Shown one piece after another: positions 7,364 to 47,154 of a DNA stretch of 64,000 nucleotides. Below the pieces are notes generated by a model, which saw only the letters and a program-made list of their open reading frames with translations, was not told the DNA's origin and searched no databases. Numbering within the stretch: the stretch's first letter is position 1; each line of letters begins with the position of its first letter. This DNA comes from Flavobacteriales bacterium UBA3364 (GTDB taxonomy: Bacteria > Bacteroidota > Bacteroidia > Flavobacteriales_F > PHOS-HE28), in NCBI GenBank assembly GCA_002360495.1, contig DEQO01000077.1, positions 11,572 through 75,571 of the forward strand, written 5' to 3'. The translations under genes were made by a program, and so were the position numbers.

Positions 7364-8959
7364 CTACTTCGTATCGGTGGACAGATCGATACGTACTGGG
7401 AGATAGCGTCCACCATCGGGCTTCTCGGACCCGAACGTGTAATACTCCGTAGGTCCCACGCGGAACAACTGCTGTCCGCAGATATAGCCGGTCTCACCGG
7501 TGCTCTTCAACACGGGCTTCACCTTGCTCACCCCCTTCGCATCGAAGGCGATGTGCGCACTGTACGGGTCTTCCATCATGCCAACGGTCATCTTGCCACC
7601 CGTCTTCCGCAATCCGGCCATCTGCTCGGAATCCATGAGGAACAAGAAAAGCTCATCGCTGAACGATCCACACAGGACATCGCCCAAGTTGGGTGAACCA
7701 CTTTGGTACCAGCGACGGAACAGGCTGTTCCATTGAACGCTTCCGCTCTTATCGACCGCAGTGGCCTGCACCGGGCCGTGGATGTAACGGTCCATGGTGC
7801 GTTTGTCCTTCAGGTCGAAGTAGGTCTCCATGAAGTAGAGCTCCTTCACCAGGAAGAAGCCGCCGTCCTTGCGGGGCATCACATCGATCATCCGTATCCC
7901 GGTCATCCAGCGTTCGGTGTCCTTTTCCGTGAACTTCTGGCCCTGCACCGGCTGTGGCTCGCCTTCGGCGTTCAATCCCCCTTCTTCCGGATGGGGTATC
8001 AGCATGGGTTCGCCGATGGTGCCGTCCGGTGCGATCATGGCGATCATGTCGCCTTCCGTATGGACCTTATCCGCTTCGATCTTCGCGTACACACCGCACA
8101 AAGCGATACGACCATCGGGAAGCTGGCCAAGGATGGCGTGCGTCAAGAACTGCTCGCGGGACAAGGGGACGGCCACCACCGAAGCGCTATCCTTCCCGAT
8201 CCGATGCAGGGTGATGGAAACGGTCGGCTTTCCATCCGCCACTTCGGCGCGCGCAGACCGATCGCTCACCAGCACGTAGGCTGTTCCCGAGGTATCCAAT
8301 TCAGCATCGAGCACCATCGACCGGATGGACTTCTCGCCTCCCGTCACCGCCTGCTGCCAACGCACCTGCATGTCCTTGCCGACCAGCCCCAGCATGGCCT
8401 TGTATCCGCCATGCATCGGCACCATAGGGCTGCGCAGCAACAACAACGAACTGTCCGGGGAATAATGGTAGTTGAAGGATGCCGGTTCCGCGTGCGTAGC
8501 CGATGGAAGTGCAACAGGCCACGAGCATAGTACCTCGTGTGGAGGTGGCATCTTGGTGATGTTCGGTTCAAGCACCTGGTAGTACAGGCTTGTAGCATCC
8601 GCCCCATGATCACGGGCCAGCATCAACGTGCGACCTGCGAAAACGATCACCCGATCCGGGACCACCTTACGGCCGTTCGTGAGCTTCTCGACGGGTGGTT
8701 GGGTGCGGAGGAAGCCGAGCTTGGCACGGTCGTACAGGTCCAATCGGCCTTTGACCACACCGTCCACTTCCACCTCCTGGCGTTGCATCAAGAGGCTGTT
8801 GGCCGCGGTCTTCACCAAGCCGATCGGGGCCAGCCGGGCATCGCCTTCACCCTCCATGCCCATGCGCACCCGAATACGCGTCCTGTCACCTTGGGCATTA
8901 AGGGCGACGCTCGAAAGGACAAGTGCGAAAAGGAACGATGCTGAACGGAAATGGGCCAT
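7364..8959 (-). CDS. Hypothetical secreted protein
   Basis: The 531-aa product starts MAHFRSASFLFALVLSSVALNAQG (signal peptide; ATG at 8959-8957) inside the longer 7364..9217 ORF. I recognised no family. Confidence 0.6.
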   Translation of the reverse strand: MAHFRSASFLFALVLSSVALNAQGDRTRIRVRMGMEGEGDARLAPIGLVKTAANSLLMQRQEVEVDGVVKGRLDLYDRAKLGFLRTQPPVEKLTNGRKVVPDRVIVFAGRTLMLARDHGADATSLYYQVLEPNITKMPPPHEVLCSWPVALPSATHAEPASFNYHYSPDSSLLLLRSPMVPMHGGYKAMLGLVGKDMQVRWQQAVTGGEKSIRSMVLDAELDTSGTAYVLVSDRSARAEVADGKPTVSITLHRIGKDSASVVAVPLSREQFLTHAILGQLPDGRIALCGVYAKIEADKVHTEGDMIAMIAPDGTIGEPMLIPHPEEGGLNAEGEPQPVQGQKFTEKDTERWMTGIRMIDVMPRKDGGFFLVKELYFMETYFDLKDKRTMDRYIHGPVQATAVDKSGSVQWNSLFRRWYQSGSPNLGDVLCGSFSDELFLFLMDSEQMAGLRKTGGKMTVGMMEDPYSAHIAFDAKGVSKVKPVLKSTGETGYICGQQLFRVGPTEYYTFGSEKPDGGRYLPVRIDLSTDTK

Positions 8960-9050
8960 TGGACGCTCGATGTTGGTGCGCAAAGTAGTGGTACTCGTGC
9001 AAATGGACCGGTCGCCCAGCAAAGGACGTACCACGCCGGGGATGCACGCC

Positions 9051-9392
9051 TCAGCCGAGTTTGGGATTGTTCCAGTGCCGTTCGGCGTCGCGCGCCGTTC
9101 GCTTGGCCATTGCTGAATCCCAGGCGGCTTGCAGATCAGTTCCCGTCTGGTTCGCGAGGCACAGGACAACGAAGAGCACATCCGAAAGTTCCTCACCAAG
9201 GTCCTTCGCCCTGTCACTTTCCTTCTCGCTTTGTTCCCCGTAACGCCGGGCCATGATGCGCGCCACCTCCCCTACTTCCTCGGCGAGCAAGGCCATGTTG
9301 GTCATGGGATCGAAGTAGCGAACGCCGGTGGTCTTGATCCACTGGTCCACGTTCTTTTGAAGGATCCCGAGCGGTTCCATGTCATCCATCAT
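9051..9392 (-). CDS. mazG: MazG-like nucleotide pyrophosphohydrolase
   Basis: 113 aa. The EEVGEVARI and ELSDVLFVVLCLA helices are typical of small MazG proteins. The start overlaps the dtd stop in ATGA. Confidence 0.8.
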   Translation of the reverse strand: MMDDMEPLGILQKNVDQWIKTTGVRYFDPMTNMALLAEEVGEVARIMARRYGEQSEKESDRAKDLGEELSDVLFVVLCLANQTGTDLQAAWDSAMAKRTARDAERHWNNPKLG

Positions 9393-9841
9393 TCGCGCAG
9401 TTTGCTGTCGATGATCACCGTCACCGGACCATTGTTGACCAAGGCCACTTGCATATCGGCACCGAACTCGCCGGTGCGTACCGGACGGCCCAACAGTTCG
9501 GTGAACCGTTGCTTCGCCCGCAGGTAGAGCGGAACGGCTTCTTCCGGACGTGCGGCGCGCATGTAACTGGGGCGATTGCCCTTTGCCGTGCTGGCGTGCA
9601 ACGTGAATTGGCTGACCAGGAGAAGTTCGCCATGTGCCTGAGCGACGTCCACGTTCATCACACCCTCGGCGTCCGGAAAAATGCGCAACCGGGCGACCTT
9701 CCCGCAGATCCATTCCAGATCCTCCTCCGTGTCGCCCACTTCAATACCGAGCAGTACGAGCATCCCTGTGGAGATATGAGCGCGTCGCGTTCCGCCGATG
9801 TCCACGGACGCTTCACTGACCCGCTGAACAACGGCCCGCAT
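9389..9841 (-). CDS. dtd: D-aminoacyl-tRNA deacylase
   Basis: 150 aa. It reads MRAVVQRVSEASV ... LLVSQFTL ... NGPVT, the canonical Dtd signature. Confidence 0.93.
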   Translation of the reverse strand: MRAVVQRVSEASVDIGGTRRAHISTGMLVLLGIEVGDTEEDLEWICGKVARLRIFPDAEGVMNVDVAQAHGELLLVSQFTLHASTAKGNRPSYMRAARPEEAVPLYLRAKQRFTELLGRPVRTGEFGADMQVALVNNGPVTVIIDSKLRE

Positions 9842-9842
9842 C

Positions 9843-10670
9843 TCAATTCCTGTTGCGCTGGAACCAGTCGATCATGTTGCGCTGCTTCTCTTCATCCGTT
9901 CCCTTCCCTTGCACAGCATCGCGGTAGGTACCATACATCGGATTGGGAAGCAGGATGAAGTAGCGTGCGAGCGTATCGGCCATGAGATCCACGGTGTTCT
10001 TTCCATCGTTCACCGTTCGGTCCTTGAACCGCTCATCGAAGTCGCGGAGTTGATCGCCTACCAGGAGAACGACATGGTTGTCGTTCGCGACGCGGGCCCG
10101 TCGTTCGGTCTTATCGCTGGTGCCTTCCATCAACAACAGGTGCTTTTCGTCCGCATCGGGGAATTTCAGGCTATCCAGGTTCTTGAGCGTTGTGGCCTTC
10201 TCACGGATATCGCGGTTCGTGATGTAATAGATGTGGCAGCCGAGGCCATGCGCATACGTCAGGAATTCCACGGCTCCGGGGATCGCGGCTGCCTTTGAAC
10301 GATCGGTCCATTCCTTCCAGGTGGCCTGATCGAAGATGCGACCGTCCGCAGCGGCATCGACCTGGTATGGGCTGTTGTCCAGGACCGTTTCATCGATGTC
10401 CACGATCACGGCAGGGGGGCGCTTATCCGCGACCTTGAGGTTCTCCGTCAGTCGCAAGCGTGCGAGTTCATAGCCTTGTTGTTGGAGCCGGTACGCTTCC
10501 GCGGAAGCGTGTTGCCAGAGCACAGCATCATATCCGTAGTGCGATAACGATGCCGCATGATCGATGGCCGGCGGCGGTTCGGGCGGAAGTGGCGTTGCTT
10601 CCACCAACTTCTGCTGGCGGCTGCACGCCACAATGGAAACGCCGATCGCGGCGATGAGCACTCGGTTCAT
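9843..10670 (-). CDS. Class C acid phosphatase / 5'-nucleotidase lipoprotein e(P4) family (HAD IIIB)
   Basis: 275 aa. It has a lipobox-like N-terminus (IVAC), the DIDETVLDN motif and a distal GDQLRDF motif. Confidence 0.85.
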   Translation of the reverse strand: MNRVLIAAIGVSIVACSRQQKLVEATPLPPEPPPAIDHAASLSHYGYDAVLWQHASAEAYRLQQQGYELARLRLTENLKVADKRPPAVIVDIDETVLDNSPYQVDAAADGRIFDQATWKEWTDRSKAAAIPGAVEFLTYAHGLGCHIYYITNRDIREKATTLKNLDSLKFPDADEKHLLLMEGTSDKTERRARVANDNHVVLLVGDQLRDFDERFKDRTVNDGKNTVDLMADTLARYFILLPNPMYGTYRDAVQGKGTDEEKQRNMIDWFQRNRN

Positions 10671-12775: not shown

Positions 12776-14316
12776 TGGGAGGTACGGGCCAGCAGCGCCT
12801 GATGCTCTGGGGCATTCCCGCTGTGCTCTTCTTGAGCGCGGTCTGGATGATGTGGACCCCCAGCTTCCCCACATTGGACGGGTGGACGCACTTGCATACC
12901 TCCCGTTTGCTGTTCGATGGTCACGACGATGGCGTCTATTGCAGCAATCCGGCGATGGTGCCGAATCGCGTCGGGCATCTGGTATTGGGTGCATTGCAAC
13001 TGGTGCTTCCGGCGCTGGTCGCCGAGCGCGTCCTGCTGGCCATCATCATACTCGGTATCGGACTTGGTGCATTGGCGCTGTCAAGGGCCTTCGGCGCAAA
13101 GGGCGGTGGAGGTCTGGTGCTCCTGGTGCTTCCGTTCACGGTCAACTTCCTGCTGGTATTGGGTTTCCACAATTTCCTTCTCGGTTTCGGGATGGCCTTG
13201 CTTCTGGCCGCATGGTGGGTGGCGCTGGAACGCATCGACTGGTGGAGAACGCTGGTGCTCCTGTTCTGTACACTGCTCCTTTTCTACACGCATACCATGG
13301 CCCTGGTGCTCTTCCTGCTGGTCGCCGGAACGCATGAGTGCACGGTTCTCATCGGTCTTCGTCAACGCATCGAGCTACGCCTCCCGGGTGCGCGGATCAA
13401 GGCCATGCTTCTTTTCATCCTTCCAGTACTCCCTGCCATCGTCCTCTTCCTCCTTTTCAATGCGACGCAACGCGCGGAGTGGGGAATGGTCGACCGCAGC
13501 GCGAACCTGCGCCAGCTCATGGACCTCCAAAGCCTGGTCCTATACGGGAAGGAGTCCGAGGAAAAGTTCACCTATGCGGTCAAACTGCTCCTGATCGCTG
13601 GCTTCGGCATTGCGATCGTCGGACGTGCACGGAGCGATGCCCCGTGGAAACCGCGCCACTGCGACGTCCCGTTGTCGATCGGGGTGCTTCTCCTGGTCCT
13701 CTATTTCGTGCTCCCTGATTCATCGGGTTATGCGAGCTATATCACCTTGCGTCTTCAATTGATGGCCCTTGTCCTTTTGATCACATGGATGGCGGCACAA
13801 CCCAATTCGATGGCCATCACATCGGGTCCCGTCGTGATGATCCTGTTGCTGCACAGCTCACGTTCCACTCACATCTCGGAGACCATGGCACCGCTCGCCG
13901 AACGGAGGGACCAACTGCTCCAAGCTGCGGACCAGCTGCCCAACGGAGCGATCGTACTTCCCATTTCCACCGAGGACAATTGGCTCCTGGGACATGCGTC
14001 GTCGTTGCTCGCCGTGGAACGTGAGGTGACGCTGTTGGACAACTACGAGTGCAACACCGGCTACTTCCCGCTGGTCTGGTGCTCCGGTCTGCCGGATGCG
14101 CTCCATGCACACGTCGGCGGTGGTGACCGCTGCCTGGGATGGCTGCAGGGCCATATCCAACAGAACGCAACCCCGCGCATCGACCGGATCGTCCTTTTCG
14201 GCTACGCGCAAGACACGATCTCCTGCGGTGCGAAGAACCTGAACAACGTACTGGCCGCGTATTTCCACCAAGGATATTCCAACGCTTACGCGAAGGTCTA
14301 CGAGCGCTTGCCGTGA
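12775..14316 (+). CDS. Polytopic membrane protein of unknown function with a C-terminal soluble domain
   Basis: 513 aa. About ten hydrophobic helices fill the first ~330 aa, followed by a ~150-aa hydrophilic tail. The start overlaps the gldA stop (TGATG). Confidence 0.65.
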   Translation: MGGTGQQRLMLWGIPAVLFLSAVWMMWTPSFPTLDGWTHLHTSRLLFDGHDDGVYCSNPAMVPNRVGHLVLGALQLVLPALVAERVLLAIIILGIGLGALALSRAFGAKGGGGLVLLVLPFTVNFLLVLGFHNFLLGFGMALLLAAWWVALERIDWWRTLVLLFCTLLLFYTHTMALVLFLLVAGTHECTVLIGLRQRIELRLPGARIKAMLLFILPVLPAIVLFLLFNATQRAEWGMVDRSANLRQLMDLQSLVLYGKESEEKFTYAVKLLLIAGFGIAIVGRARSDAPWKPRHCDVPLSIGVLLLVLYFVLPDSSGYASYITLRLQLMALVLLITWMAAQPNSMAITSGPVVMILLLHSSRSTHISETMAPLAERRDQLLQAADQLPNGAIVLPISTEDNWLLGHASSLLAVEREVTLLDNYECNTGYFPLVWCSGLPDALHAHVGGGDRCLGWLQGHIQQNATPRIDRIVLFGYAQDTISCGAKNLNNVLAAYFHQGYSNAYAKVYERLP

Positions 14317-33763: not shown

Positions 33764-36700
33764 ATGTCCATCGCCTCCCTCTCCGACCTCCTCTCCCTCT
33801 ACCGCTCTGATGCACGCTTAGCGCGCGTGGCCGAGGGCTTACGCGAGAAAGCCGCCCGCGTACAGATCGCCGGTACCATCGGCTCTTCGCAAGCACTCAT
33901 CGCCAGTTCTGTGATCGTGCAGCGCGGCGGCGTGCATGTGTTCGTGCTCACCGACCGCGAGGAGGCCGCCTACTTCTTGAACGACCTCGAAGCGCTTCGC
34001 GGGAAAGACAAGGAGAGTCGCAAGGCAAAGGACGAGGACACCTTCTTCTTCCCCGCTCCTTCCCGTTCGCCCTACGACCCCGAAGGCCATCATGACGGGG
34101 AGCGTGTGAGCCGCACGGAAGTGCTGGAGGCCCTGATGAAGGTGAAGGATGGCAGTGAGGAAGCGCTTCGACAAGCTCAGCGAGACAGTGCTTTGATCAT
34201 CGTCACCTATCCCGAGGCGTTGGTGCCCCTGGTGATGGGCAAGGAGGAGATGGCGAAGAACACGCTCACCGTGAAGCGCCACGAGGAGCTGCCCATCGAC
34301 ACGTTGCAAGAATGGTTGGAGGAAACAGGCTTCAGTCGCGTGGAGTTCGTGTACGAGCCCGGGCAGTTCAGCATACGCGGCGGCATCGTGGACGTCTTCA
34401 GCTACGGCAGTGACAAGCCCTACCGCATCGAGCTCTACGGCGACAATGTGGAGAGCGTGCGCCGCTTCGACCCGCAGGACCAATTGACCGTGGAGTTCCT
34501 CGCCGAGGCGGTCATCGTGCCCGACCTGCAGGACGAGGACACCGCGCGCCAGCAGAACTTCTTCGCACAGCTGCCCGAGGATGCAGTGCTCTGGCTCCGC
34601 GACCTGCAAGCCATCGGCGATGCGGCCACCAAGCAGTTGAAGTTGCTCAACGAGGCGTACGAGAGAGTGCCTGAGAAGGAGAAGCACCCAACGCCGAACG
34701 AGCTGCTCGCCACGGACACAGAGTTGATCAAGAGCACGCTCGGCTTCCACAAGGTCTTCGTCCGCAGCGCCGATCAGGAATCAGCGAATCAGCAATCCTC
34801 AGTGATCGTCGACTTCCAGCACAGGCCGCAACCCACCTTCGCGAAAGAGTTCAAGGTCCTCAGCGGCGACCTGCACAACAAGCAGAACGCGGGCTACACC
34901 AACCTCATCGCCTGCAACAGCGCCAAGCAGAGCGAACGGCTGTACACCATCTTCAACGACATGGAGCATGAGGTGGCCTTCACGCCTCTTGTCCTTGACC
35001 TGCACGAAGGCTTCATCGATCCCGAGCTGAAGCTGGCGCTCTACACCGACCACCAGATCTTCGAGCGTTACCACCGCTACCGCCTGAAGGAGGGCTTCCG
35101 CAAGAACGCGCAGGCGCTTACGCTGAAGGAGCTCACACAGCTGAAGCCCGGCGACCTCGTGGTGCACATCGACCACGGCGTGGGTGTGTTCAGCGGCCTG
35201 GAGACCATCGACGCGGGCGGCAGCATGCAGGAGGCGATCCGCCTGAAGTACCGTGACAACGACATCCTCTACGTGGGCATCCACAGCCTGCACCGCGTGA
35301 GCAAGTACAGCGGCGGCGAGGGCGACAAGGCCCCGCAGGTGAGCAAGCTCGGCACACCCGCGTGGAAGAACCTGAAGGAGAAGACCAAGGCCAAGGTGAA
35401 GGCGCTGGCCTTCGACCTCATCAAGCTCTACGCGCAACGCAAGAGCAAGCCAGGCTTCGCGTACCAGCCCGACAACTACCTGCAGCACGAACTGGAGGCC
35501 AGCTTCATCTACGAGGACACGCCCGACCAGCTCAAGGCCACGCAGGACGTGAAGCGCGACATGGAGAAGGGCACGCCCATGGACCGCCTGGTGTGCGGCG
35601 ACGTGGGCTTCGGCAAGACCGAGGTGGCGATCCGCGCGGCGTTCAAGGCGGCATGCGACAGCAAGCAGGTCGCGGTGCTCGTGCCCACCACCATCCTCGC
35701 GCTGCAGCACTGGAAGAGCTTTTCCAACCGCATGAAGGGGCTGCCCGTTCGCGTCGAATACATCAACCGCTTCCGCAGCAGCGCGCAGCAGACGCAGATC
35801 CTCAAGGACCTCAAGGAAGGCAAGATCGACATCCTCATCGGCACGCACCGGCTGGTGAGCAAGGACGTGGTGTGGAAGGACCTCGGCCTCATGATCATCG
35901 ACGAGGAGCAGAAGTTCGGCGTGAACGTGAAGGACAAGTTGAAGACCCTGCGTGCCTCGGTGGATACCCTGACCCTTACGGCTACACCGATCCCTCGCAC
36001 GCTGCAGTTCAGCCTCATGGGCGCGCGCGACCTCAGCATCATCAGCACACCGCCTCCGAACCGCTATCCGGTAAGCACCATGCTGCAACCGTACGATGAA
36101 GTCGTGATCCGTGGCGCGATCGAATACGAGCTCAGTCGCGGCGGCCAAGTGTATTTCCTGCACGACAAGGTGAAGAACATCGAGCACATCGCCGACATGA
36201 TCCGCAAGCTGGTGCCCGGCTCGCGCGTGGGTGTTGGTCACGGCCAGCTCGAAGGCCACAAGCTGGAAGAAGTGATGATGGACTTCATCGAGGGCAACAC
36301 CGACATTCTCGTCTGCACCACCATCGTGGAGAACGGCCTCGACATCCCGAACGCAAACACGATCATCGTGAACGAGGCGCAGAACTTCGGGCTGAGCGAT
36401 CTGCACCAGCTACGCGGACGCGTGGGTCGCAGCAACAAAAAGGCCTACTGCTATCTGCTTGCGCCAAGTCCGCATCTGCTGCCCGACCTGTCGCGCAAAC
36501 GCCTGCAAGCCATCGAGCAGTTCAGCGACCTGGGCAGCGGCATCCACATCGCCATGAAGGACCTCGACATCCGCGGCGCGGGCGACCTGCTCGGCGCGGA
36601 ACAGAGCGGCTTCATCAACGACATCGGTTTCGAAACCTACCACAAGATCCTCGAAGAAGCCGTACGCGAACTGAAGGACCAGCACTTCAAAGACCTCTTC

Positions 36701-37222
36701 GACGACGCGCAAGAGGGCAGCCACGCACTCGCCCGCGGATCGCGCCGCGACCAGAGCGACGACTGCATCATCGAGACCGACCTCACCATGCTGATCCCCA
36801 ACAGCTACGTGAGCGAGACCGCCGAACGCCTCGCGCTCTACCGCCGCCTAGACGACATCAAGGACGAAGGGGAGCTGCAGAAGTTCAGCGCCGAGGTCAC
36901 CGACCGCTTCGGTCCCATCCCGCCGCTGGTGAATGAACTGCTCGAAGGCATCCGCCTGCGCTGGCTCGGCCAACGCATGGGCCTGGAGAAGATGGTGCTG
37001 AAGAAGCAGACGCTCATCGGCACCTTCATCGCGGATCAGAAACATCCCTTCTTCGAGGGCGATGGCTTCAACGCGGTGCTGAGAGCGGTACAGGCGCAGC
37101 CGCGTCGCTTCAAGGTTTACGAGAAGGCGGGGACCTTGAGGATCAGCGTGCAGGATGTGAAGAACATCGAAGGGGCGAAGGCGGCGATGGAGAGTGTGGT
37201 GGGTACTCCGATAGGGGTCTAG
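33764..37222 (+). CDS. mfd: Transcription-repair coupling factor
   Basis: 1152 aa. It has a UvrB-homology N-terminus, a CarD/RID region, helicase motifs (GDVGFGKTEVA, DEEQKFG, TATPIPRT, QLRGRVGRS) and a TRCF C-terminal domain. Confidence 0.97.
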   Translation: MSIASLSDLLSLYRSDARLARVAEGLREKAARVQIAGTIGSSQALIASSVIVQRGGVHVFVLTDREEAAYFLNDLEALRGKDKESRKAKDEDTFFFPAPSRSPYDPEGHHDGERVSRTEVLEALMKVKDGSEEALRQAQRDSALIIVTYPEALVPLVMGKEEMAKNTLTVKRHEELPIDTLQEWLEETGFSRVEFVYEPGQFSIRGGIVDVFSYGSDKPYRIELYGDNVESVRRFDPQDQLTVEFLAEAVIVPDLQDEDTARQQNFFAQLPEDAVLWLRDLQAIGDAATKQLKLLNEAYERVPEKEKHPTPNELLATDTELIKSTLGFHKVFVRSADQESANQQSSVIVDFQHRPQPTFAKEFKVLSGDLHNKQNAGYTNLIACNSAKQSERLYTIFNDMEHEVAFTPLVLDLHEGFIDPELKLALYTDHQIFERYHRYRLKEGFRKNAQALTLKELTQLKPGDLVVHIDHGVGVFSGLETIDAGGSMQEAIRLKYRDNDILYVGIHSLHRVSKYSGGEGDKAPQVSKLGTPAWKNLKEKTKAKVKALAFDLIKLYAQRKSKPGFAYQPDNYLQHELEASFIYEDTPDQLKATQDVKRDMEKGTPMDRLVCGDVGFGKTEVAIRAAFKAACDSKQVAVLVPTTILALQHWKSFSNRMKGLPVRVEYINRFRSSAQQTQILKDLKEGKIDILIGTHRLVSKDVVWKDLGLMIIDEEQKFGVNVKDKLKTLRASVDTLTLTATPIPRTLQFSLMGARDLSIISTPPPNRYPVSTMLQPYDEVVIRGAIEYELSRGGQVYFLHDKVKNIEHIADMIRKLVPGSRVGVGHGQLEGHKLEEVMMDFIEGNTDILVCTTIVENGLDIPNANTIIVNEAQNFGLSDLHQLRGRVGRSNKKAYCYLLAPSPHLLPDLSRKRLQAIEQFSDLGSGIHIAMKDLDIRGAGDLLGAEQSGFINDIGFETYHKILEEAVRELKDQHFKDLFDDAQEGSHALARGSRRDQSDDCIIETDLTMLIPNSYVSETAERLALYRRLDDIKDEGELQKFSAEVTDRFGPIPPLVNELLEGIRLRWLGQRMGLEKMVLKKQTLIGTFIADQKHPFFEGDGFNAVLRAVQAQPRRFKVYEKAGTLRISVQDVKNIEGAKAAMESVVGTPIGV
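37101..37222 (+). repeat. Direct repeat copy A (the functional 3' end of mfd)
   Basis: It aligns with 38371-38493. By eye roughly nine in ten positions are identical over the first ~95 nt, and the last ~20 nt have diverged. Confidence 0.8.
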
Positions 37223-40558: not shown

Positions 40559-40710
40559 CCCATAGGGTCCCCCTTCCCCGCCCCCTCCAACTCCTCGATC
40601 GTCTTCCGCGCCGCCTCCAAGCGCACCCTATTGTTCTTGCCCCCAGCATGTTGGTGGTCCAGTGCTCCATGCGGTGGTGCATCGGAATGAGCGGTGCGGC
40701 GATGGCCGCC
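40555..40710 (-). pseudogene. Frameshifted 3' relic of a fourth TPR/3-TM family gene
   Basis: The DNA aligns with the 3' ends of the three genes at 42.7-47.1 kb and encodes ..IPMHHRMEHWTTNML / ..KNNRVRLEAARKTIEELEGAGKGDPMG*. A 1-nt deletion relative to the intact copies splits it across two frames. Similarity stops near 40706. Confidence 0.7.
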
Positions 40711-40802
40711 ACCGACCAGGCGACAAGAACACAAGACGCGCATGGGATGCCCCGTTCGGCCAATTACCGGGACCGCCAATGCAGGTTGGTACATTCGCCG
40801 GC

Positions 40803-41408
40803 ATGCTAAACTCCCAGCCTCGGAGATCACGCAGTTCGCTCATCGCTTCGCTGCTGCTGTGCGCGGTGACCGGTGCGGCGCAGGATGGCCAGCGACTGAG
40901 CGTTTCCCTGTACAACCAAAGCACTGCGATCCCCTATACGCGGTTCTTCACCACACCGGTACATCCTGGCTTTCAGGTGGCGGCGGAATTCGACCTGAAC
41001 GACAGACCACACGGTCGCGCGTTCGCTGCGGCTCACCTCGGCTACTTCTATCATCGTCACCTCGCGCAAGGGTTCTATGTGGGCGGGGATCTCGGGTATG
41101 AGGCACGCACCCGAGCCGGGATCAGCTTCGCCGGCCTCCTTGGGCTGGGCTACCTCCGGACCTACGTCACACAGCCGGAGTACATCTTCCAGAACGGCCA
41201 ATATCTACGAAGGCCCGACAAAGGCAATGGCCGCTTGATGCCATCGCTCTCCGTGGAGACCGGCTACTACTTCGACCAGGAACGGAACAGCACGCAGCTG
41301 TTCGTGCGCTATCAAAGCTGGGTGGAATACCCGTACTCACCCGGCTTCATTGAACTGATGTCCCACATCAACCTGCACCTGGGGGTGCGCTTCACGCTTG
41401 GCCAATGA
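40803..41408 (+). CDS. Hypothetical outer-membrane beta-barrel protein
   Basis: 201 aa starting MLNSQPRRSRSSLIASLLLCAVTGAAQ. It has Tyr/Gly-rich alternating strands. Confidence 0.6.
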   Translation: MLNSQPRRSRSSLIASLLLCAVTGAAQDGQRLSVSLYNQSTAIPYTRFFTTPVHPGFQVAAEFDLNDRPHGRAFAAAHLGYFYHRHLAQGFYVGGDLGYEARTRAGISFAGLLGLGYLRTYVTQPEYIFQNGQYLRRPDKGNGRLMPSLSVETGYYFDQERNSTQLFVRYQSWVEYPYSPGFIELMSHINLHLGVRFTLGQ

Positions 41409-42604
41409 GCTTCCACATGCTTACACGTTCATCCGTGATCGCCGTGCTGCTTTCCGCGCTGCTGTTCTCCTGCGAGAAAGGCGAGAAGATCGAACCGGAC
41501 TTCTATGCATGCTCCTTCACGCACGCCGACAGCAGCACGAGCCACCCGGAACGCTCCAGCTACCAGGGCCTGCTCCAAGCCATGACCGGCGAAGGCGTTC
41601 CAGGCGTGCTGATGAGCGTGAACGATCCCGTGCACGGGGAATGGAACGGCGCGGAAGGGATGGCGGACCTCTTCAACCGTTACCCGATGCGGCCGTGCAA
41701 CATCTCGCGGTTGGGCAGCACGGTCAAGACCTTCACCGCCACCACCATCATGCTGTTGCAGGAAGAGGGAAAGCTGGACCTGGACGACCGCATCGCCGAG
41801 CACCTCAGCGGCGAACCGATCGACCGGTTGGCGAACGCTGACCAGGTGACCATTCGCCAATGTCTTCAGCACAGTAGCGGCATCCCCAACTACATCGCGA
41901 GCGCACAGTTCCAGACCGCCTCGCTCAACGACCTGATCCGGGTCTGGCATCCCGAGGACCTACTGGCCTACGCGTACGACAAGCCCGCCGATTTCGAGCC
42001 GGGCAGCGACGTGCGCTATTCCAATACACCGTACATCCTGCTGGGCATGCTGATCGAGCACATCGAAGGAAAACCGTTCCATCAGGTCTTTGAGGAGAAG
42101 CTCTTTGGTCCCCTGGGGCTCTCGTCGATGCGCTTCGCTGCCACGGACAATGTGCCCGATGGCATCGTGCGCGGCTACGTGGACTTCTACAGCAACCTCA
42201 ACGTGATCGAAAGCACGTACTACAGCGGCTGGGACTATTTCACTGCGGATGGCGGACTGATCGGCAACCCGCACGACCTGGGCTCGTTCCTGCGTGCGCT
42301 CGCTGGCGGACAGGTGATCAACGCAGCATCGCTGGCTGAAATGACCACCTGGAGGGCGCCAAGCGAGACCGACGACGCTTTCTTTCCGATCCAATACGGG
42401 CTCGGCATCTTCCGCATGGAGACCCCTTGGGGGGAGGCCTGGTTCCACAGCGGTGATGCGATCGGGTACTACGCATGCATGGCCTACTTCCCGACACAGG
42501 GCACGAGCATTACATGGGCCGTGAACGGCAACTACGGCCTGATCGACGAGGCCACGCAGACCCGAACCGCCATGGAACGCATCTTCGGCACCGTCCTGCC
42601 ATGA
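41405..42604 (+). CDS. Beta-lactamase-fold serine hydrolase (class C / PBP4*-like)
   Basis: 399 aa. It has a signal peptide with lipobox (LLFSC), an SxxK motif (GSTVKTF) and a YxN motif (RYSNTPY). The start overlaps the upstream stop in ATGA. Confidence 0.88.
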   Translation: MSFHMLTRSSVIAVLLSALLFSCEKGEKIEPDFYACSFTHADSSTSHPERSSYQGLLQAMTGEGVPGVLMSVNDPVHGEWNGAEGMADLFNRYPMRPCNISRLGSTVKTFTATTIMLLQEEGKLDLDDRIAEHLSGEPIDRLANADQVTIRQCLQHSSGIPNYIASAQFQTASLNDLIRVWHPEDLLAYAYDKPADFEPGSDVRYSNTPYILLGMLIEHIEGKPFHQVFEEKLFGPLGLSSMRFAATDNVPDGIVRGYVDFYSNLNVIESTYYSGWDYFTADGGLIGNPHDLGSFLRALAGGQVINAASLAEMTTWRAPSETDDAFFPIQYGLGIFRMETPWGEAWFHSGDAIGYYACMAYFPTQGTSITWAVNGNYGLIDEATQTRTAMERIFGTVLP

Positions 42605-42708: not shown

Positions 42709-44160
42709 CTAACTATCACCTTTCCCGGACCCTTCATCCGCCGCAGCGCTGGCGGAAGCGGACTCCAACTCCTCGATCGTCCTCCTCGCCGCCTCCAACC
42801 GCACGCGGTTGTTCTTGCTCGCGAGCATGTTGGTGATCCAGTGCTCCATGCGGTGGTGCATGGGAATGAGCAACCCAGCGATCGCCGCCATACAAAGCAA
42901 CATGAGGATCGGCGAGTGGTCGGTGATGCGATCAAGGAGTGGATGCAGCAACAGGTTGATGAACTCGAAGAAGAGCAGCAGCGCGATGAGCGAGAGGTTC
43001 TTGATGGCCTTGGCGCCCACCACCGCCGTGCGGCTGAACACGAGCAGGAAGATGCCGAGCGTGATGACGATGAGCGCGATGATCCCGAACTGGATGTTGC
43101 GGGAGCGTGTGGCGAGTTCCTCCGCGCGCACCTTGGCGTCCTCACGGTCCTTCAGTTCCTGCTCCAAGGCCATGTTCTGGAGCTTGTTCAGGTTCGCTGT
43201 GCTCCTAAGGCTGTCGTTGAAGAGCGCCTTCATTTCCGAGTAATGGAAAGCACTATCCAAGCGGCCTTGCACCTTGTAGGCTGCGCGCAAGAGGTCTGCC
43301 GCGTTGATCGTGCCCGTAAGCCCAAAGCCACGGCTCACCGCCAGACCGCGCTGGCCATCGGTGATCGCTCCGGCCACATTCTGCAAATCAAGATGCATGC
43401 GACCGCGCCCCACGAGCGCCTGGATGAGCGGTGCCGCAACATTGAAGGAATCGGCCACTTCGATCGCCCGTGTGAAATGCACCTCGGCCAGAACGCTGTC
43501 CCGCTTGGCCGCATAGGCCGCTCCCAGCAAGTAGTAGGATCGCGCATAGCCATAGGGATCATCCGAAGGCCGGTCGATGATGTTCGAGCGCTGTGCGAAG
43601 TATAAGGCTGAGTCCGCCTGCCCCATGAGACGATAACAATCGCTCAATTGGCAGTTCGTGCGATTCACCTCCGGCACCGAACGCACGTTCGCGATCGCCT
43701 TCTTCAAGAGATCAAGACTGCGCGGATAGTCCCCGAGGTTCTTGTGGACGACCGCGATCTCCTTGTCCGCAACTCCCACGTACTCCACGCTGCCCGCCGT
43801 TTCGGCCAGAGCACGGGCCCTGTAGAAGTATTTTAGCGAGCCCTGGGGGTCAGCTGCGGTGGCATTACCGAGGACCATATACGCCTCAACGACAAGGGTG
43901 TCCACACCGATCGCCTCAGCAAGATCCAGCGCATCCTTTGCTGACACTGTCGCCGACGCGGTGTTCCCCGCGTAGTAACAAGCCCACGCATGGTTGCTGG
44001 TGATCCAGAAGCGTTCGAGAACTGGGCGTGACTTGTCGTGACGGGTGTCAAGCGAATCGTATTCGGGATCGATGCCGTACTTCTGGGCAACAGCGCAAGC
44101 ACAAGCAGCTAACCCTAGCATGAATACCAATGACCGCATCATCGCTAACGGTTTCATCAT
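42709..44160 (-). CDS. Signal peptide + TPR + coiled coil + 3-TM protein, paralogue 1
   Basis: 483 aa. It has signal peptide MRSLVFMLGLAACACAVAQ, TPR-like helix pairs, the coiled coil LEQELKDREDAKVRAEE, three hydrophobic helices and the tail HHRMEHWITNMLASKNNRVRLEAARRTIEELE. Confidence 0.8.
   Translation of the reverse strand: MMKPLAMMRSLVFMLGLAACACAVAQKYGIDPEYDSLDTRHDKSRPVLERFWITSNHAWACYYAGNTASATVSAKDALDLAEAIGVDTLVVEAYMVLGNATAADPQGSLKYFYRARALAETAGSVEYVGVADKEIAVVHKNLGDYPRSLDLLKKAIANVRSVPEVNRTNCQLSDCYRLMGQADSALYFAQRSNIIDRPSDDPYGYARSYYLLGAAYAAKRDSVLAEVHFTRAIEVADSFNVAAPLIQALVGRGRMHLDLQNVAGAITDGQRGLAVSRGFGLTGTINAADLLRAAYKVQGRLDSAFHYSEMKALFNDSLRSTANLNKLQNMALEQELKDREDAKVRAEELATRSRNIQFGIIALIVITLGIFLLVFSRTAVVGAKAIKNLSLIALLLFFEFINLLLHPLLDRITDHSPILMLLCMAAIAGLLIPMHHRMEHWITNMLASKNNRVRLEAARRTIEELESASASAAADEGSGKGDS
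42763..43107. repeat. Conserved C-terminal module repeat, copy 1
   Basis: This 345-nt block encodes RSRNIQFGIIAL...RRTIEELE and is alignable without gaps to 44181-44525 and 45624-45968. Confidence 0.85.
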
Positions 44161-45590
44161 TGTGCCTTGTCGCCTTTGGCCTCCAGTTCTTCGATAGTCC
44201 TTCTCGCCGCCTCAAGCCTCACCCTATTGTTCTTGCTCACCAGCATGTTGGTGATCCAGTGCTCCATGCGGTGATGCATCGGAATGAGCAGCGCGGCGAT
44301 GGCGGCCATGCACAGCAGCATCAGCAAGGGCGAATGGTGCGTGATCTCGCCCAGCACCGGATGCACCAGCAGGTTGATGAACTCGAAGAAGAGCAGCAGC
44401 GCGATAAGCGAGAGGTTCTTGATGGCCTTCGCGCCCACCACCGCCGTGCGGCTGAACACCAGCAGGAAGATGCCCAGCGTGATGACGATGAGCGCGATGA
44501 TGCCGAACTGGATGTTGCGGGAGCGCTCCTGCTCGGCTTCTATGCGCGCTTGTTCCTCTTCCTTGTCTTTTAGCTGCTGGCCGAACCGCATGTTCTCCAC
44601 CTTGCTCAGCTTTTCGGCGCTCACCAGGCTGTCCTGCAAGGTGGCATGCAGTTTCAGGATGAGGTAAGCGCTGTCCGGCTTGCCTGCGGCGTGATAGGCT
44701 CGCTCCAATAGGTCAGTGGCCTCGATGGAGGAGGGCAGGTTCTCCGAGCGCTCGGCCACAGCCAGGGCACGCTGTCCAAGACCGACCGCAGCGTTGGGGT
44801 CGCCTGCGGAAAGCCGCACATGGGCCGCACCCACCAGCGCAACAGGCATCACCCGCACCACGCCGAACGAATCGCATACGGCGATCGCCTTGCGGAAAAA
44901 AAGCTCGGCCATGTCCAACTCATTCTTGGCAGCGTACGCCTTGCCCAGCACCTGCTGCGAACGGGCGTAGCCGTACGGATCCATCGCCGCGGACGTGATG
45001 ATGTTGGATGCCTGCGCATGGAACATGGCAGAGTCCAACAGGCCGATGGCTGCATACGCCTCGCTCAAATGGCAATGCGTGCGGTTCACTTCCACCCAAC
45101 CCTTCACATGCCCCTCAGCGCGCTTCATCCAGTTGATCGCTTCGCGGAACTGCCCCATCTGTTTGTACAGGACGCCGATCTCCTTCTCCACCCAGCCGAT
45201 CAGACTTGACCTCCCGCTCCGCTCCGCGTGCTCCAGCCCCTTGTGCATGTACTCCAGGCCCTTGCCGGGGTCGCTCTCCTTGCACGAATAGCTCACCATC
45301 AGGTAGGTCTGGCCCAGCGTCGAGTCCTCCTTCGCTTCGGGCACCAGATCCAGCATGAACAGTGCTGTGCTTCGCAGTTCTTCGGCGCGCCCGGCGTACA
45401 AACAAGCGATGGCGTGATCCTTCGCTGCTTCGAGGCGGACGTCTATTGACCGTGACTTGTCATGCCGCACATCGAGCGTGTCCAATTGGGCGATGCCGAA
45501 TTGCGCATGGCCTACCATCGACGACATGCCGAGCATCACGGTGACAAGCCCAATGCGTAGTGACTTCATTCGGTCCCTAGTGGCTTTCAT
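44157..45590 (-). CDS. Signal peptide + TPR + coiled coil + 3-TM protein, paralogue 2
   Basis: 477 aa with the same architecture. Its stop overlaps the paralogue 1 start (ATGA at 44157-44160). Confidence 0.8.
   Translation of the reverse strand: MKATRDRMKSLRIGLVTVMLGMSSMVGHAQFGIAQLDTLDVRHDKSRSIDVRLEAAKDHAIACLYAGRAEELRSTALFMLDLVPEAKEDSTLGQTYLMVSYSCKESDPGKGLEYMHKGLEHAERSGRSSLIGWVEKEIGVLYKQMGQFREAINWMKRAEGHVKGWVEVNRTHCHLSEAYAAIGLLDSAMFHAQASNIITSAAMDPYGYARSQQVLGKAYAAKNELDMAELFFRKAIAVCDSFGVVRVMPVALVGAAHVRLSAGDPNAAVGLGQRALAVAERSENLPSSIEATDLLERAYHAAGKPDSAYLILKLHATLQDSLVSAEKLSKVENMRFGQQLKDKEEEQARIEAEQERSRNIQFGIIALIVITLGIFLLVFSRTAVVGAKAIKNLSLIALLLFFEFINLLVHPVLGEITHHSPLLMLLCMAAIAALLIPMHHRMEHWITNMLVSKNNRVRLEAARRTIEELEAKGDKAQ
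44181..44525. repeat. Conserved C-terminal module repeat, copy 2
   Basis: It contains a 71-nt run (44335-44405) identical to 45778-45848. Confidence 0.85.
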
Positions 45591-45593
45591 GAG

Positions 45594-47054
45594 CTAGTTC
45601 GTTGGATCAGTTCCGGGGCGCGCCTCCAACTCCTCGATCGTCCTTCTCGCCGCCTCCAACCGCACCCGGTTGTTCTTGCTCACCAGCATGTCGGTGATCA
45701 GCTTCTCCATGCGGTGGTGCAGCGGGATCAGCAGCGCGGCGATGGAGGCCATGCACAACAGCATCAGCAAGGGCGAGTGGTGCGTGATCTCGCCCAGCAC
45801 CGGATGCACCAGCAGGTTGATGAACTCGAAGAAGAGCAGCAGCGCGATGAGTGAGAGGTTCTTGATCGCCTTGGCGCCCACCACCGCCGTGCGGCTGAAC
45901 ACCAACAGGAAGATGCCCAGCGTGATGACGATCAGTGCGATGATGCCGAACTGGATGTTGCGGGAGCGGGCGGCGACTTCCTCCGCGCGCAGCTTGGCAT
46001 CCTCGCGGTCCTTCAGTTCCTGCGTGAACAACTGGTTCTGAAGCTGGCTCTTGTTCTGGAGCAAGATCAGCGAATCGCGCCAGGCGTGCGCAAGCTTCGA
46101 ATACACCAGCGCGCTATCGGTGATGCCGTGCGCGGCAAAGGCATCGGATAGGGCCGTGGTCGACTTCACCAGGAGGTGCGGAAGTCGCGTGTACCCGGTG
46201 GATTCGTAGCCCTTTCGCGACCATGCGAGCGCTTCCGCCATACGCCCTTGACCGATCAGCAGCTTGGTATAACCGGCTGCAGCATGGATGAGCGGCTCCG
46301 GCACCTCAGCAGAATCAGCAACGGCCAAGGCCCGTTTGAAGTAAGGCTCGGCCAAGTCGTTCTCCCCCCTGGCAGCGTGCACTTGGGCCAGGGTGAGTTG
46401 AAAGTTGGCATAGCCATATGGATCATTCCCAGGCTCCTTCAGCACATCGGCTTTGCGGGCATAGTACAGCGCGGAATCAAGGTCTCCAAGTTCCATGTGG
46501 CACCTGGCCAGGATGGACATCGAGCGGCCGTAGATCCCGTTGCTCAAGCCATAGGCCTGTGCTTTCCGCATATAGCGCAAGGTGCCTTCGGTATCCCCGG
46601 CCCGCTGGTACACGATCGCCGTCTCCTTGCTTACGGCACCCATACCCAGACTATCCCCGGCCTGCTGGAAGCGTGCGAGGGAGATGTTGAAGTGCTTCAG
46701 TGCTCCATTCACATCGTTGAGCTGCATGAACGCCCCGCCAATGCCGAAGTGCGCACGGCCGATAAGCGTATCGTTCCCGGTCCGCTCGGCCGCTTCCAGT
46801 CCACGGATGGCCGCCTTCATGCAGTCCTCCGAGCGACCGAGGAAGAGGTACTGGCTGACGAGCCTGGCAATGGCAGTGCATTTCACCCGCGGATCGGTCG
46901 CCGTCCGCTCAAGTGCTTCGATGGAGTCTACCGGGAGGCCACGAAATCTGGAAGCAAGCGTGTCGAGGGGCTGGGCGTGCAAAGAGCACGCACCGATCAG
47001 CAGTAGTCCCAGCGCGAATGCACGGATGTTCACCAGCTTCCAGAACGCGATCAT
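45594..47054 (-). CDS. Signal peptide + TPR + coiled coil + 3-TM protein, paralogue 3
   Basis: 486 aa with the same architecture. It is the first gene of the triplet and its stop lies 3 nt from the paralogue 2 start. Confidence 0.8.
   Translation of the reverse strand: MIAFWKLVNIRAFALGLLLIGACSLHAQPLDTLASRFRGLPVDSIEALERTATDPRVKCTAIARLVSQYLFLGRSEDCMKAAIRGLEAAERTGNDTLIGRAHFGIGGAFMQLNDVNGALKHFNISLARFQQAGDSLGMGAVSKETAIVYQRAGDTEGTLRYMRKAQAYGLSNGIYGRSMSILARCHMELGDLDSALYYARKADVLKEPGNDPYGYANFQLTLAQVHAARGENDLAEPYFKRALAVADSAEVPEPLIHAAAGYTKLLIGQGRMAEALAWSRKGYESTGYTRLPHLLVKSTTALSDAFAAHGITDSALVYSKLAHAWRDSLILLQNKSQLQNQLFTQELKDREDAKLRAEEVAARSRNIQFGIIALIVITLGIFLLVFSRTAVVGAKAIKNLSLIALLLFFEFINLLVHPVLGEITHHSPLLMLLCMASIAALLIPLHHRMEKLITDMLVSKNNRVRLEAARRTIEELEARPGTDPTN
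45624..45968. repeat. Conserved C-terminal module repeat, copy 3
   Basis: See copies 1 and 2. Similarity to copy 1 extends a further ~54 nt into the coiled-coil codons (QELKDREDAK[VL]RAEE). Confidence 0.85.
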
Positions 47055-47154
47055 GGATGATGCGAAAGCCTAAAGATGCGCGATCGCGGATGAACGACCC
47101 TGCCGATCCACGAACGGTGGCCGACAGCGGACCGCGCGGACGCATCTTCGCATT

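Follow-up and report, generated by a model that had tools for sequence, protein, structure and literature searches.

Tandem TPR transmembrane proteins with a homogenised C-terminal membrane module in Flavobacteriales bacterium UBA3364

The array of genes and its products

The stretch of DNA considered here (the window) comprises 64,000 nt of contig DEQO01000077.1 from Flavobacteriales bacterium UBA3364 (assembly GCA_002360495.1) and contains three tandem minus-strand open reading frames (ORFs), genes A, B and C, which encode proteins of 483, 477 and 486 amino acids (aa). Their products combine tetratricopeptide repeats (TPRs) with three transmembrane helices (TM1 to TM3), and we refer to them as TPR-3TM proteins. 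A preliminary description, made from the letters of the window alone, had noted three co-directional and tightly packed genes, and our reading of the ORFs agrees with it: A and B overlap by 4 nt (44157-44160), and B and C are separated by 3 nt (45591-45593). The coordinates of the genes, of the C-terminal module on which this study centres, and of the accompanying features are collected in Table 1.

Each of the three proteins begins with a signal peptide, continues as a TPR solenoid of ~330 aa and a long helix, and ends with three membrane helices and a short tail that is itself helical. The common architecture proposed earlier, with a coiled coil between the repeats and the membrane helices, is borne out by Pfam, by AlphaFold2 models and by sequence inspection. 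All three proteins score 46.8-59.3 bits with TPR_12 in Pfam, against a cut-off of 30.1, which places them among the TPR repeat proteins; Pfam and NCBIfam detect no families in them other than TPR ones, and all of these matches lie in the N-terminal halves. In the full-length model of gene C the TPR solenoid occupies aa 40-330 with a predicted local distance difference test score (pLDDT) of about 90, and an uninterrupted helix (312-389) unites the last TPR helix, the coiled coil and TM1; it is followed by helices 394-424 and 428-457 and by a tail helix at 460-477. A model of the module only returns the same three helices. The TPR half matches TPR structures in Foldseek (E 1e-8), and its fold is like that of the peptide- or protein-binding TPR domains of LGN, KLC and Rap/NprR.

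The N-termini are hydrophobic and end in AQ. The loop between TM1 and TM2 (SRTAVVGAKAIKN) is basic, as is the tail. Under the positive-inside rule, this distribution of charge would place the TPR domain in the periplasm and the tail in the cytoplasm, where only about 45 residues of A, B and C would be found. The term 'secreted' in the preliminary description does not fit such proteins, which rather sit in the inner membrane and expose a domain to the periplasm. In the tail, hydrophobic residues recur in a heptad pattern, which suggests that it forms a coiled coil and that the protein is a dimer or oligomer. The invariant polar residues of the module belong to the motifs FEFINLL.HP, T.HSP and P.HHR.E; 34 positions of the module are invariant across orders, and E, N, H, T, H, HH, R and E stand among them at both membrane faces.

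Table 1. Positions of the array, its C-terminal modules and accompanying features in the window
Feature	Position	Strand	Basis
Gene C, TPR-3TM paralogue type C, first gene of the array	45594..47054	-	ORF of 486 aa; Pfam TPR_12 and TPR_MalT only
Gene B, paralogue type B	44157..45590	-	ORF of 477 aa; Pfam TPR only
Gene A, paralogue type A	42709..44160	-	ORF of 483 aa; Pfam TPR only
Homogenised C-terminal module of gene C (RSRNIQF...EELE; three membrane helices and tail helix)	45624..45968	-	Identity profile, dS, repeat family D1, module model
Homogenised C-terminal module of gene B	44181..44525	-	Identity profile, dS, repeat family D1
Homogenised C-terminal module of gene A	42763..43107	-	Identity profile, dS, repeat family D1
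71-nt run, B copy identical to C copy at 45778-45848	44335..44405		Direct reading of both stretches
Decayed fourth (D-type) copy: last ~50 codons of the module, frameshifted	40564..40736	-	tblastn and blastn, repeat families D2 and D3
Intergenic region upstream of gene C, common to the divergent ADH_zinc gene; presumed promoter region	47055..47154	-	Sequence read

Homogenisation of the C-terminal module

When the three proteins are aligned, identity is scattered over the first ~350 residues and is followed by a near-invariant block that extends from RSRNIQF to EELE. The nucleotide sequences are about 45% identical over the first ~1050 nt and 90-97% identical in the last ~345 nt; a sliding 60-nt identity profile along the codon alignment stays at 30-65% up to nt ~1050 and reaches 90-97% at 1111-1260, and the step sits at the start of TM1. 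This profile upholds the earlier observation that divergent N-terminal halves are fused to last ~115 codons of near-identical sequence. Because identity is so strongly non-uniform along the genes, a simple recent duplication of A, B and C is excluded. The 71-nt run reported before as common to B and C proved exact, with mismatches at 44334 and 44406, and a repeat search gathers the three modules into one 300-nt family.

The divergence at synonymous sites (dS; Nei-Gojobori estimates for pairs among A, B and C) follows the same division of the genes. It amounts to 1.5-1.9 in the N-terminal halves and to 0.21-0.26 in the TM1-TM2 segment, and in the loop/TM3 segment to 0.095 between B and C, so that dS within the tract (0.095-0.26) is far below that of its flank. 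Gene A carries another variant of the loop/TM3 segment (LHPLLDRITDHSPIL), for which dS against B or C is 1.4-1.7. The 60 nt upstream of the module, on the other hand, are common to A and C and not to B. The tract is therefore a mosaic, with this upstream piece common to A and C and another, the loop/TM3 segment, common to B and C.

Two loci from related genomes provide orthologues for comparison: L007 with A-, C- and D-type genes, and L011 with B-, C- and D-type genes. In their N-terminal halves the A orthologues of the window and L007 are 55% identical, the B orthologues of the window and L011 89%, and the C orthologues 83% (L007) and 68% (L011). Different types are less alike, with 53% between C and D and 23-37% for the remaining pairs (A and B against C and D; A against B). 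The N-terminal halves group by type across genomes, and the paralogue types therefore predate the species. By contrast, the modules carry genome-specific states, synonymous ones included, and do not group by orthologue type. All three copies in the window read LLVFSRTA with the codons GTG, CGC and TCG, whereas all three in L007 read LLIFSRT(S/T) with GTT (Val), AGG/AGA (Arg) and TCA (Ser). Likewise, the loop variant LHPFLDRITNHSPIL occurs in all three copies of L011, B and C orthologues included, where genes B and C of the window have VHPVLGEITHHSPLL. Over a segment of 75 nt, gene B of the window differs from its neighbour C at 3 sites and from its own orthologue in L011 at 19. In the B copies the 5' limit of the tract falls sharply at the RSRN codons, and 5' of these the window's gene B follows its orthologue in L011. 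In identities as well as in codon and residue states, then, the tract groups by genome and its flanks group by orthology.

Low dS, mosaic breakpoints and genome-specific synonymous states common to non-orthologous copies all speak for gene conversion, and at the level of sequence they show that the module has been homogenised in this lineage by conversion on top of strong purifying selection. The preliminary description had offered gene conversion or very strong constraint as explanations; the synonymous-site pattern and the 34 invariant positions indicate that both operate. That purifying selection holds the module without any conversion, the paralogues having been independent since an ancient duplication, appears to us most improbable. 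The invariant positions agree with such a history, and so does a module identity of 45-57% between Flavobacteriales and Chitinophagales. Moreover, the Chitinophagales array L053 has four paralogues whose modules are ~88% identical at the protein level and differ by many scattered synonymous changes, so selection alone can hold the protein near-constant and conversion is not needed family-wide. However, selection on the protein accounts neither for a dS of 0.1-0.26 in the tract beside 1.5-1.9 in the N-terminal halves of the same genes, nor for the 71-nt identical run, nor for synonymous states and loop variants that are common to the paralogues of one genome and do not track orthology.

The preliminary description had further likened the genes to a small receptor repertoire with diversifying TPR parts. 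A repertoire is indeed seen, in arrays of 2-6 copies; rapid diversification is not, because the types are kept at 55-89% identity between genomes. Judged by these identities, the TPR halves are old and stable paralogue types.

The wider family, array turnover and neighbouring genes

A profile of the module retrieves 1,894 representative clusters (clustered at 50% identity) at E<=1e-3 and 1,059 at E<=1e-10, and a full-length query retrieves at least 2,558 at E<=1e-20. The family is one of Bacteroidota, abundant in those of soil, freshwater and activated sludge. Among the best 150 of the 1,894 matches, nearly all full-length-looking members end, to within a few residues, with the module and are ~450-500 aa long (two have 570 and 595 aa); about a quarter of the proteins listed there are shorter and apparently truncated. 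The names supplied for homologues by the source are 'tetratricopeptide repeat protein' or 'hypothetical protein' without exception. In species-representative genomes, close relatives (78-96% identical) belong to uncultured Flavobacteriales, and relatives at 45-57% to Chitinophagales, Flavobacterium and other Bacteroidota. Many genomes have tandem arrays with a spacing of ~1.45 kb; by motif count, the largest arrays at a single locus have 6 copies in the close clade and 4 in Chitinophagales.

The order of the genes differs between loci: C-B-A followed by a D-type relic in the window, A-C-D in L007 and B-C-D in L011. The relic is recognised by tblastn matches in two frames (40564-40641 and 40632-40736) and by a blastn match of 84% over 40584-40711; the spacing of the repeat families D2 and D3 differs by 1 nt, and the tail 'EGAGKGD' is that of the D-type copy of L007. 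Between the relic and gene A lie two plus-strand genes, 40662-41408 (without Pfam match) and 41405-42604 (beta-lactamase-family). An array member in L013 (5752-6945) has lost the coiled coil and the first part of TM1 through an internal deletion ('...KVQGMAFIIALIVITLG...') and is also truncated at its N-terminus. The differing gene order, the deleted copy and the relic thus indicate that recombination at the module also adds, removes and reorders units.

At the syntenic site of L003 between ADH_zinc and mfd (9190-10579; Flavobacteriales metagenome-assembled genome [MAG] JAHCIA01, 3.86-Mb contig), a single copy is split by frameshifts into ORFs of 181, 90 and 192 aa. The breaks recur in two Logan assemblies of related runs, and this copy is probably a pseudogene.

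In another assembly of the same organism, GCA_035438145.1 (L001, DAORHW010000001.1; locus 12934-14098), the contig breaks off within gene A's module, and many other contigs in our genome scan end at or beside a module. The near-identical repeat therefore disturbs (short-read) assembly, which explains why assemblies of these genomes break here. Such breaks, together with the origin of all sequences from MAGs, might lead one to suspect that the near-identity is itself an artefact of assembly or polishing, produced by collapsed repeats or by reads mis-mapped between paralogues. We consider this very unlikely: the identical gene C protein occurs on two independent contigs, arrays of the same kind and pattern are present on the long-read 'tig' contigs L006, L011, L013 and L015, the mosaic tracts are in frame and contain copy-specific differences, and the pattern is found again in dozens of independent assemblies.

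In 8 of the ~32 distant loci (L053 1246-4059, L076 11841-14696 and L060 8453-9346; also L050, L055, L057, L064 and L073), a second tandem family lies beside the TPR-3TM genes, in the same orientation. It consists of single-pass proteins of ~300 aa with an acidic N-terminus, a divergent C-terminal part of ~200 aa and the invariant motif 'MEVHHHxHxxHxKKTWKxYFWEF...AExQLEH', and it has no match in Pfam or NCBIfam. As an obligate partner this MEVHHH family is ruled out by its absence from the window and by a reciprocal test, in which none of 79 metagenomic MEVHHH loci contained the FEFINLL motif or a TPR-3TM gene.

Other neighbours were noted at single or few loci. A cyanophycin synthetase gene (cphA) lies directly upstream of a TPR-3TM gene on the same strand in one Flavobacterium MAG (L054 4004-6628) and one Chitinophagaceae MAG (L060 3150-5771). 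The beta-lactamase-family gene of the window is convergent with gene A, and in L081 such a gene (8424-9767) overlaps the homologue by 23 nt. In L079/L080 the homologue is flanked by two Asp_protease_2 genes, one with a PDZ domain (L079 5587-6759 and 8638-9843). The gene mfd, for the transcription-repair coupling factor, is convergent and lies downstream of the array in the window (33764-37222), as in L003, L007 and L011. The gap between mfd and the array in the window holds extra genes (DUF2262, an alpha/beta hydrolase and an HxlR regulator), and this region is therefore variable.

A sigma-70 scan of 47055-47154 gave no site; Bacteroidota promoters are outside the coverage of that scan. Both 'terminators' reported by an intrinsic-terminator scan are a palindrome within the coding sequence of the module, on the antisense strand; neither the promoter scan nor the terminator scan is informative for this phylum. 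The 16-nt palindrome CAACCGCAC[G/C]CGGTTG at 42796-42811 and 45657-45672 falls in the NNRVRL codons of modules A and C and is probably incidental. An Rfam search found no RNA element.

Proposed function and comparison with known systems

The module corresponds to no recognised domain; the preliminary description had not recognised its His-rich HHRMEHW tail motif as a described one. Matches to Pfam and NCBIfam are at chance level (E>0.09), an hmmsearch against PDB sequences gives nothing at E<=10, the best PDB fold match in Foldseek has an E of 3.5, and PADLOC finds nothing on the module and no match to a defence system; taken together, these negative searches rule out a known domain for it. 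PF28559, which is listed for some homologues, was rejected as a model of the module: it is TPR_SusR, and its precomputed matches, on some distant members, are faint. Also in keeping with the earlier reading, neither a kinase nor a helix-turn-helix (HTH) domain is attached and no obvious partner gene is seen: HisKA/DHp and HATPase_c have no match in A, B and C at E<=1 in Pfam and NCBIfam, the same databases detect no HTH or other DNA-binding domain in them (the tail is a single helix), and the neighbours vary.

Local, sub-threshold similarity to known sensors is seen in the TPR/coiled-coil/TM1 part of the protein. The FimS model NF053520 matches the TPR/coiled-coil/TM1 part of the window proteins with E 1e-5 to 4e-7 (24-29 bits) and a Flavobacterium member (L054) with E 1.5e-39 (136 bits), every score in the family being far below the cut-off of 600 bits. 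Gene B has a sub-threshold match to BT3442_fam (NF053779; E 1.9e-10), and gene C a faint one to SusR_regulator (NF058541; E 0.014). In the literature on BT3442, on SusR/TPR and on periplasmic TPR sensors we found no description of the TPR-3TM family. The protein family is an undescribed variant of TPR transmembrane sensors; domain-restricted concerted evolution is a process of a known kind.

The explanation that we prefer, and hold with some reserve to be the probable one, is that the array consists of anciently diverged tandem paralogues whose module is kept by selection and conversion, and that the proteins function as dimeric, kinase-less receptors or adaptors. Its evolutionary part is shown by the comparisons given above, and its functional part we infer from the similarity of TPR/coiled-coil/TM1 to FimS and SusR-type sensors and from the peptide-binding type of TPR fold. 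The TPR-3TM proteins would be inner-membrane proteins specific to Bacteroidota, from which the signal peptide is cleaved and whose TPR superhelix, of about 8 repeats, lies in the periplasm. The long helix would lead from the last TPR helix through the coiled coil into TM1, followed by a compact TM2-loop-TM3 hairpin that carries the invariant polar residues and, in the cytoplasm, by a basic helix of ~35 aa in which a heptad pattern is seen. Family-wide purifying selection keeps the last ~115 codons near-identical; in addition, the tandem copies of this Flavobacteriales lineage have repeatedly undergone gene conversion or unequal recombination with one another, which has left a patchwork of shared tracts, and the array gains, loses and reorders units. 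Each type of TPR half may recognise its own peptide or protein ligand in the periplasm, and the membrane and tail module that all have in common may dock onto one shared partner, as in chemoreceptors.

Several observations weigh against this explanation. Neither a partner nor an output activity was identified, and no neighbour is conserved among the loci compared, where an RND pump, secreted proteins, ADH_zinc, mfd, cyanophycin synthetase, aspartyl proteases and beta-lactamase-family hydrolases are variously found. The membrane part of the models is only moderately confident (pLDDT 50-80), and the signal peptides and the membrane topology rest on sequence inspection. The genomes compared are all metagenome-assembled, and some artificial homogenisation by read mis-mapping in polishing is conceivable. 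Finally, the scattered synonymous differences of the Chitinophagales array L053 show that selection by itself can hold the module protein near-constant.

The same evolutionary history could also belong to proteins of another function. TPR domains are generic protein-binding domains, the fold matches are adaptor TPRs, a cytoplasmic output domain is lacking, and some neighbours are periplasmic enzymes (the beta-lactamase-family proteins beside gene A and in L081, Asp_protease_2 in L079/L080). The proteins might accordingly be passive, membrane-tethered periplasmic TPR scaffolds or chaperones for envelope proteins such as hydrolases and proteases, with the module as an anchor and oligomerisation device. 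This is the main functional rival, although we judge it unlikely: 34 invariant positions, a polar network of His, Glu, Asn and Arg among them, and a conserved helix in the cytoplasm are more than a mere anchor would require; by sequence, the TPR/coiled-coil/TM1 part is closest to sensors of the FimS and SusR types; and the neighbours in question are not conserved. A weaker rival is an intrinsic role of the module in binding or conducting metal ions or protons by its His/Glu/Asn cluster, with the TPR domain as a periplasmic gate or regulator. The invariant polar residues at both membrane faces would suit such an activity, short three-helix units can oligomerise into pores, and the weak Foldseek matches, all with E>3, include small channel subunits such as Orai and Orf3a. 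On the other hand, neither by structure nor by sequence does the module match any transporter or channel significantly, the polar residues are near the membrane surfaces and not along a helix face, and metal-homeostasis genes are not consistently adjacent; we regard this role as quite improbable.

Within the preferred explanation of a kinase-less receptor or adaptor, a more far-reaching proposal can be put forward tentatively, as a possibility that we rate below an even chance: the three-helix module with its His/Glu network and basic coiled-coil tail may be a new signal-output module, and the proteins a new class of Bacteroidota receptors without kinase or HTH domain that forms expandable tandem repertoires, in which sensors undergo birth and death while conversion keeps the output module interchangeable, so that every copy serves one partner. 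Bacteroidota carry many periplasmic TPR sensors, and the signals of those, FimS included, are unassigned. The TPR-3TM family appears to keep the sensor scaffold, with the kinase or DNA-binding output replaced by a small, extremely conserved membrane module of which none of the databases searched has a description. If this module is indeed the output device, it would represent a signalling route outside the two-component and one-component schemes.

In FimS of P. gingivalis, eight TPR motifs flanked by two membrane helices make up the periplasmic sensor, for which no signal or ligand has yet been found (PMC11053733). Like FimS (NF053520), the TPR-3TM proteins are predicted to combine an N-terminal hydrophobic segment with ~8 TPR motifs in the periplasm, a coiled coil next to the membrane and a membrane helix; unlike FimS, they are without DHp/HisKA and HATPase domains and have instead two extra membrane helices and a helix of ~35 aa. 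With the SusR-type proteins (PF28559, NF058541) and BT3442 (NF053779) they would share a periplasmic TPR-like sensor, a membrane helix and a short cytoplasmic part; in contrast to the SusR type, they lack an HTH domain, and three membrane helices follow the sensor where the SusR type has one. The TPR-3TM family lacks the defining output domains of the FimS and SusR families and is not a member of them.

The signalling part of chemoreceptors docks onto a shared partner, and methyl-accepting chemotaxis proteins (MCPs) are comparable to the TPR-3TM array in that paralogues combine divergent periplasmic ligand-binding parts with one conserved part. The analogy is one of design only: there is no kinship of sequence or structure, no HAMP or MCP signal domain occurs in the TPR-3TM proteins, and their conserved part is mostly intramembrane.

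In its evolution, the locus resembles the concerted evolution of duplicated tuf genes and of rRNA operons, with which it shares a tract of low dS, mosaic breakpoints, and a grouping of the tract by genome and of the flanks by orthology. It is a clear natural case in which concerted evolution is restricted to one domain: unlike in the tuf and rRNA cases, conversion is limited to the domain-coding third of the genes while the rest is saturated, and it takes place in arrays that reach six or more units.

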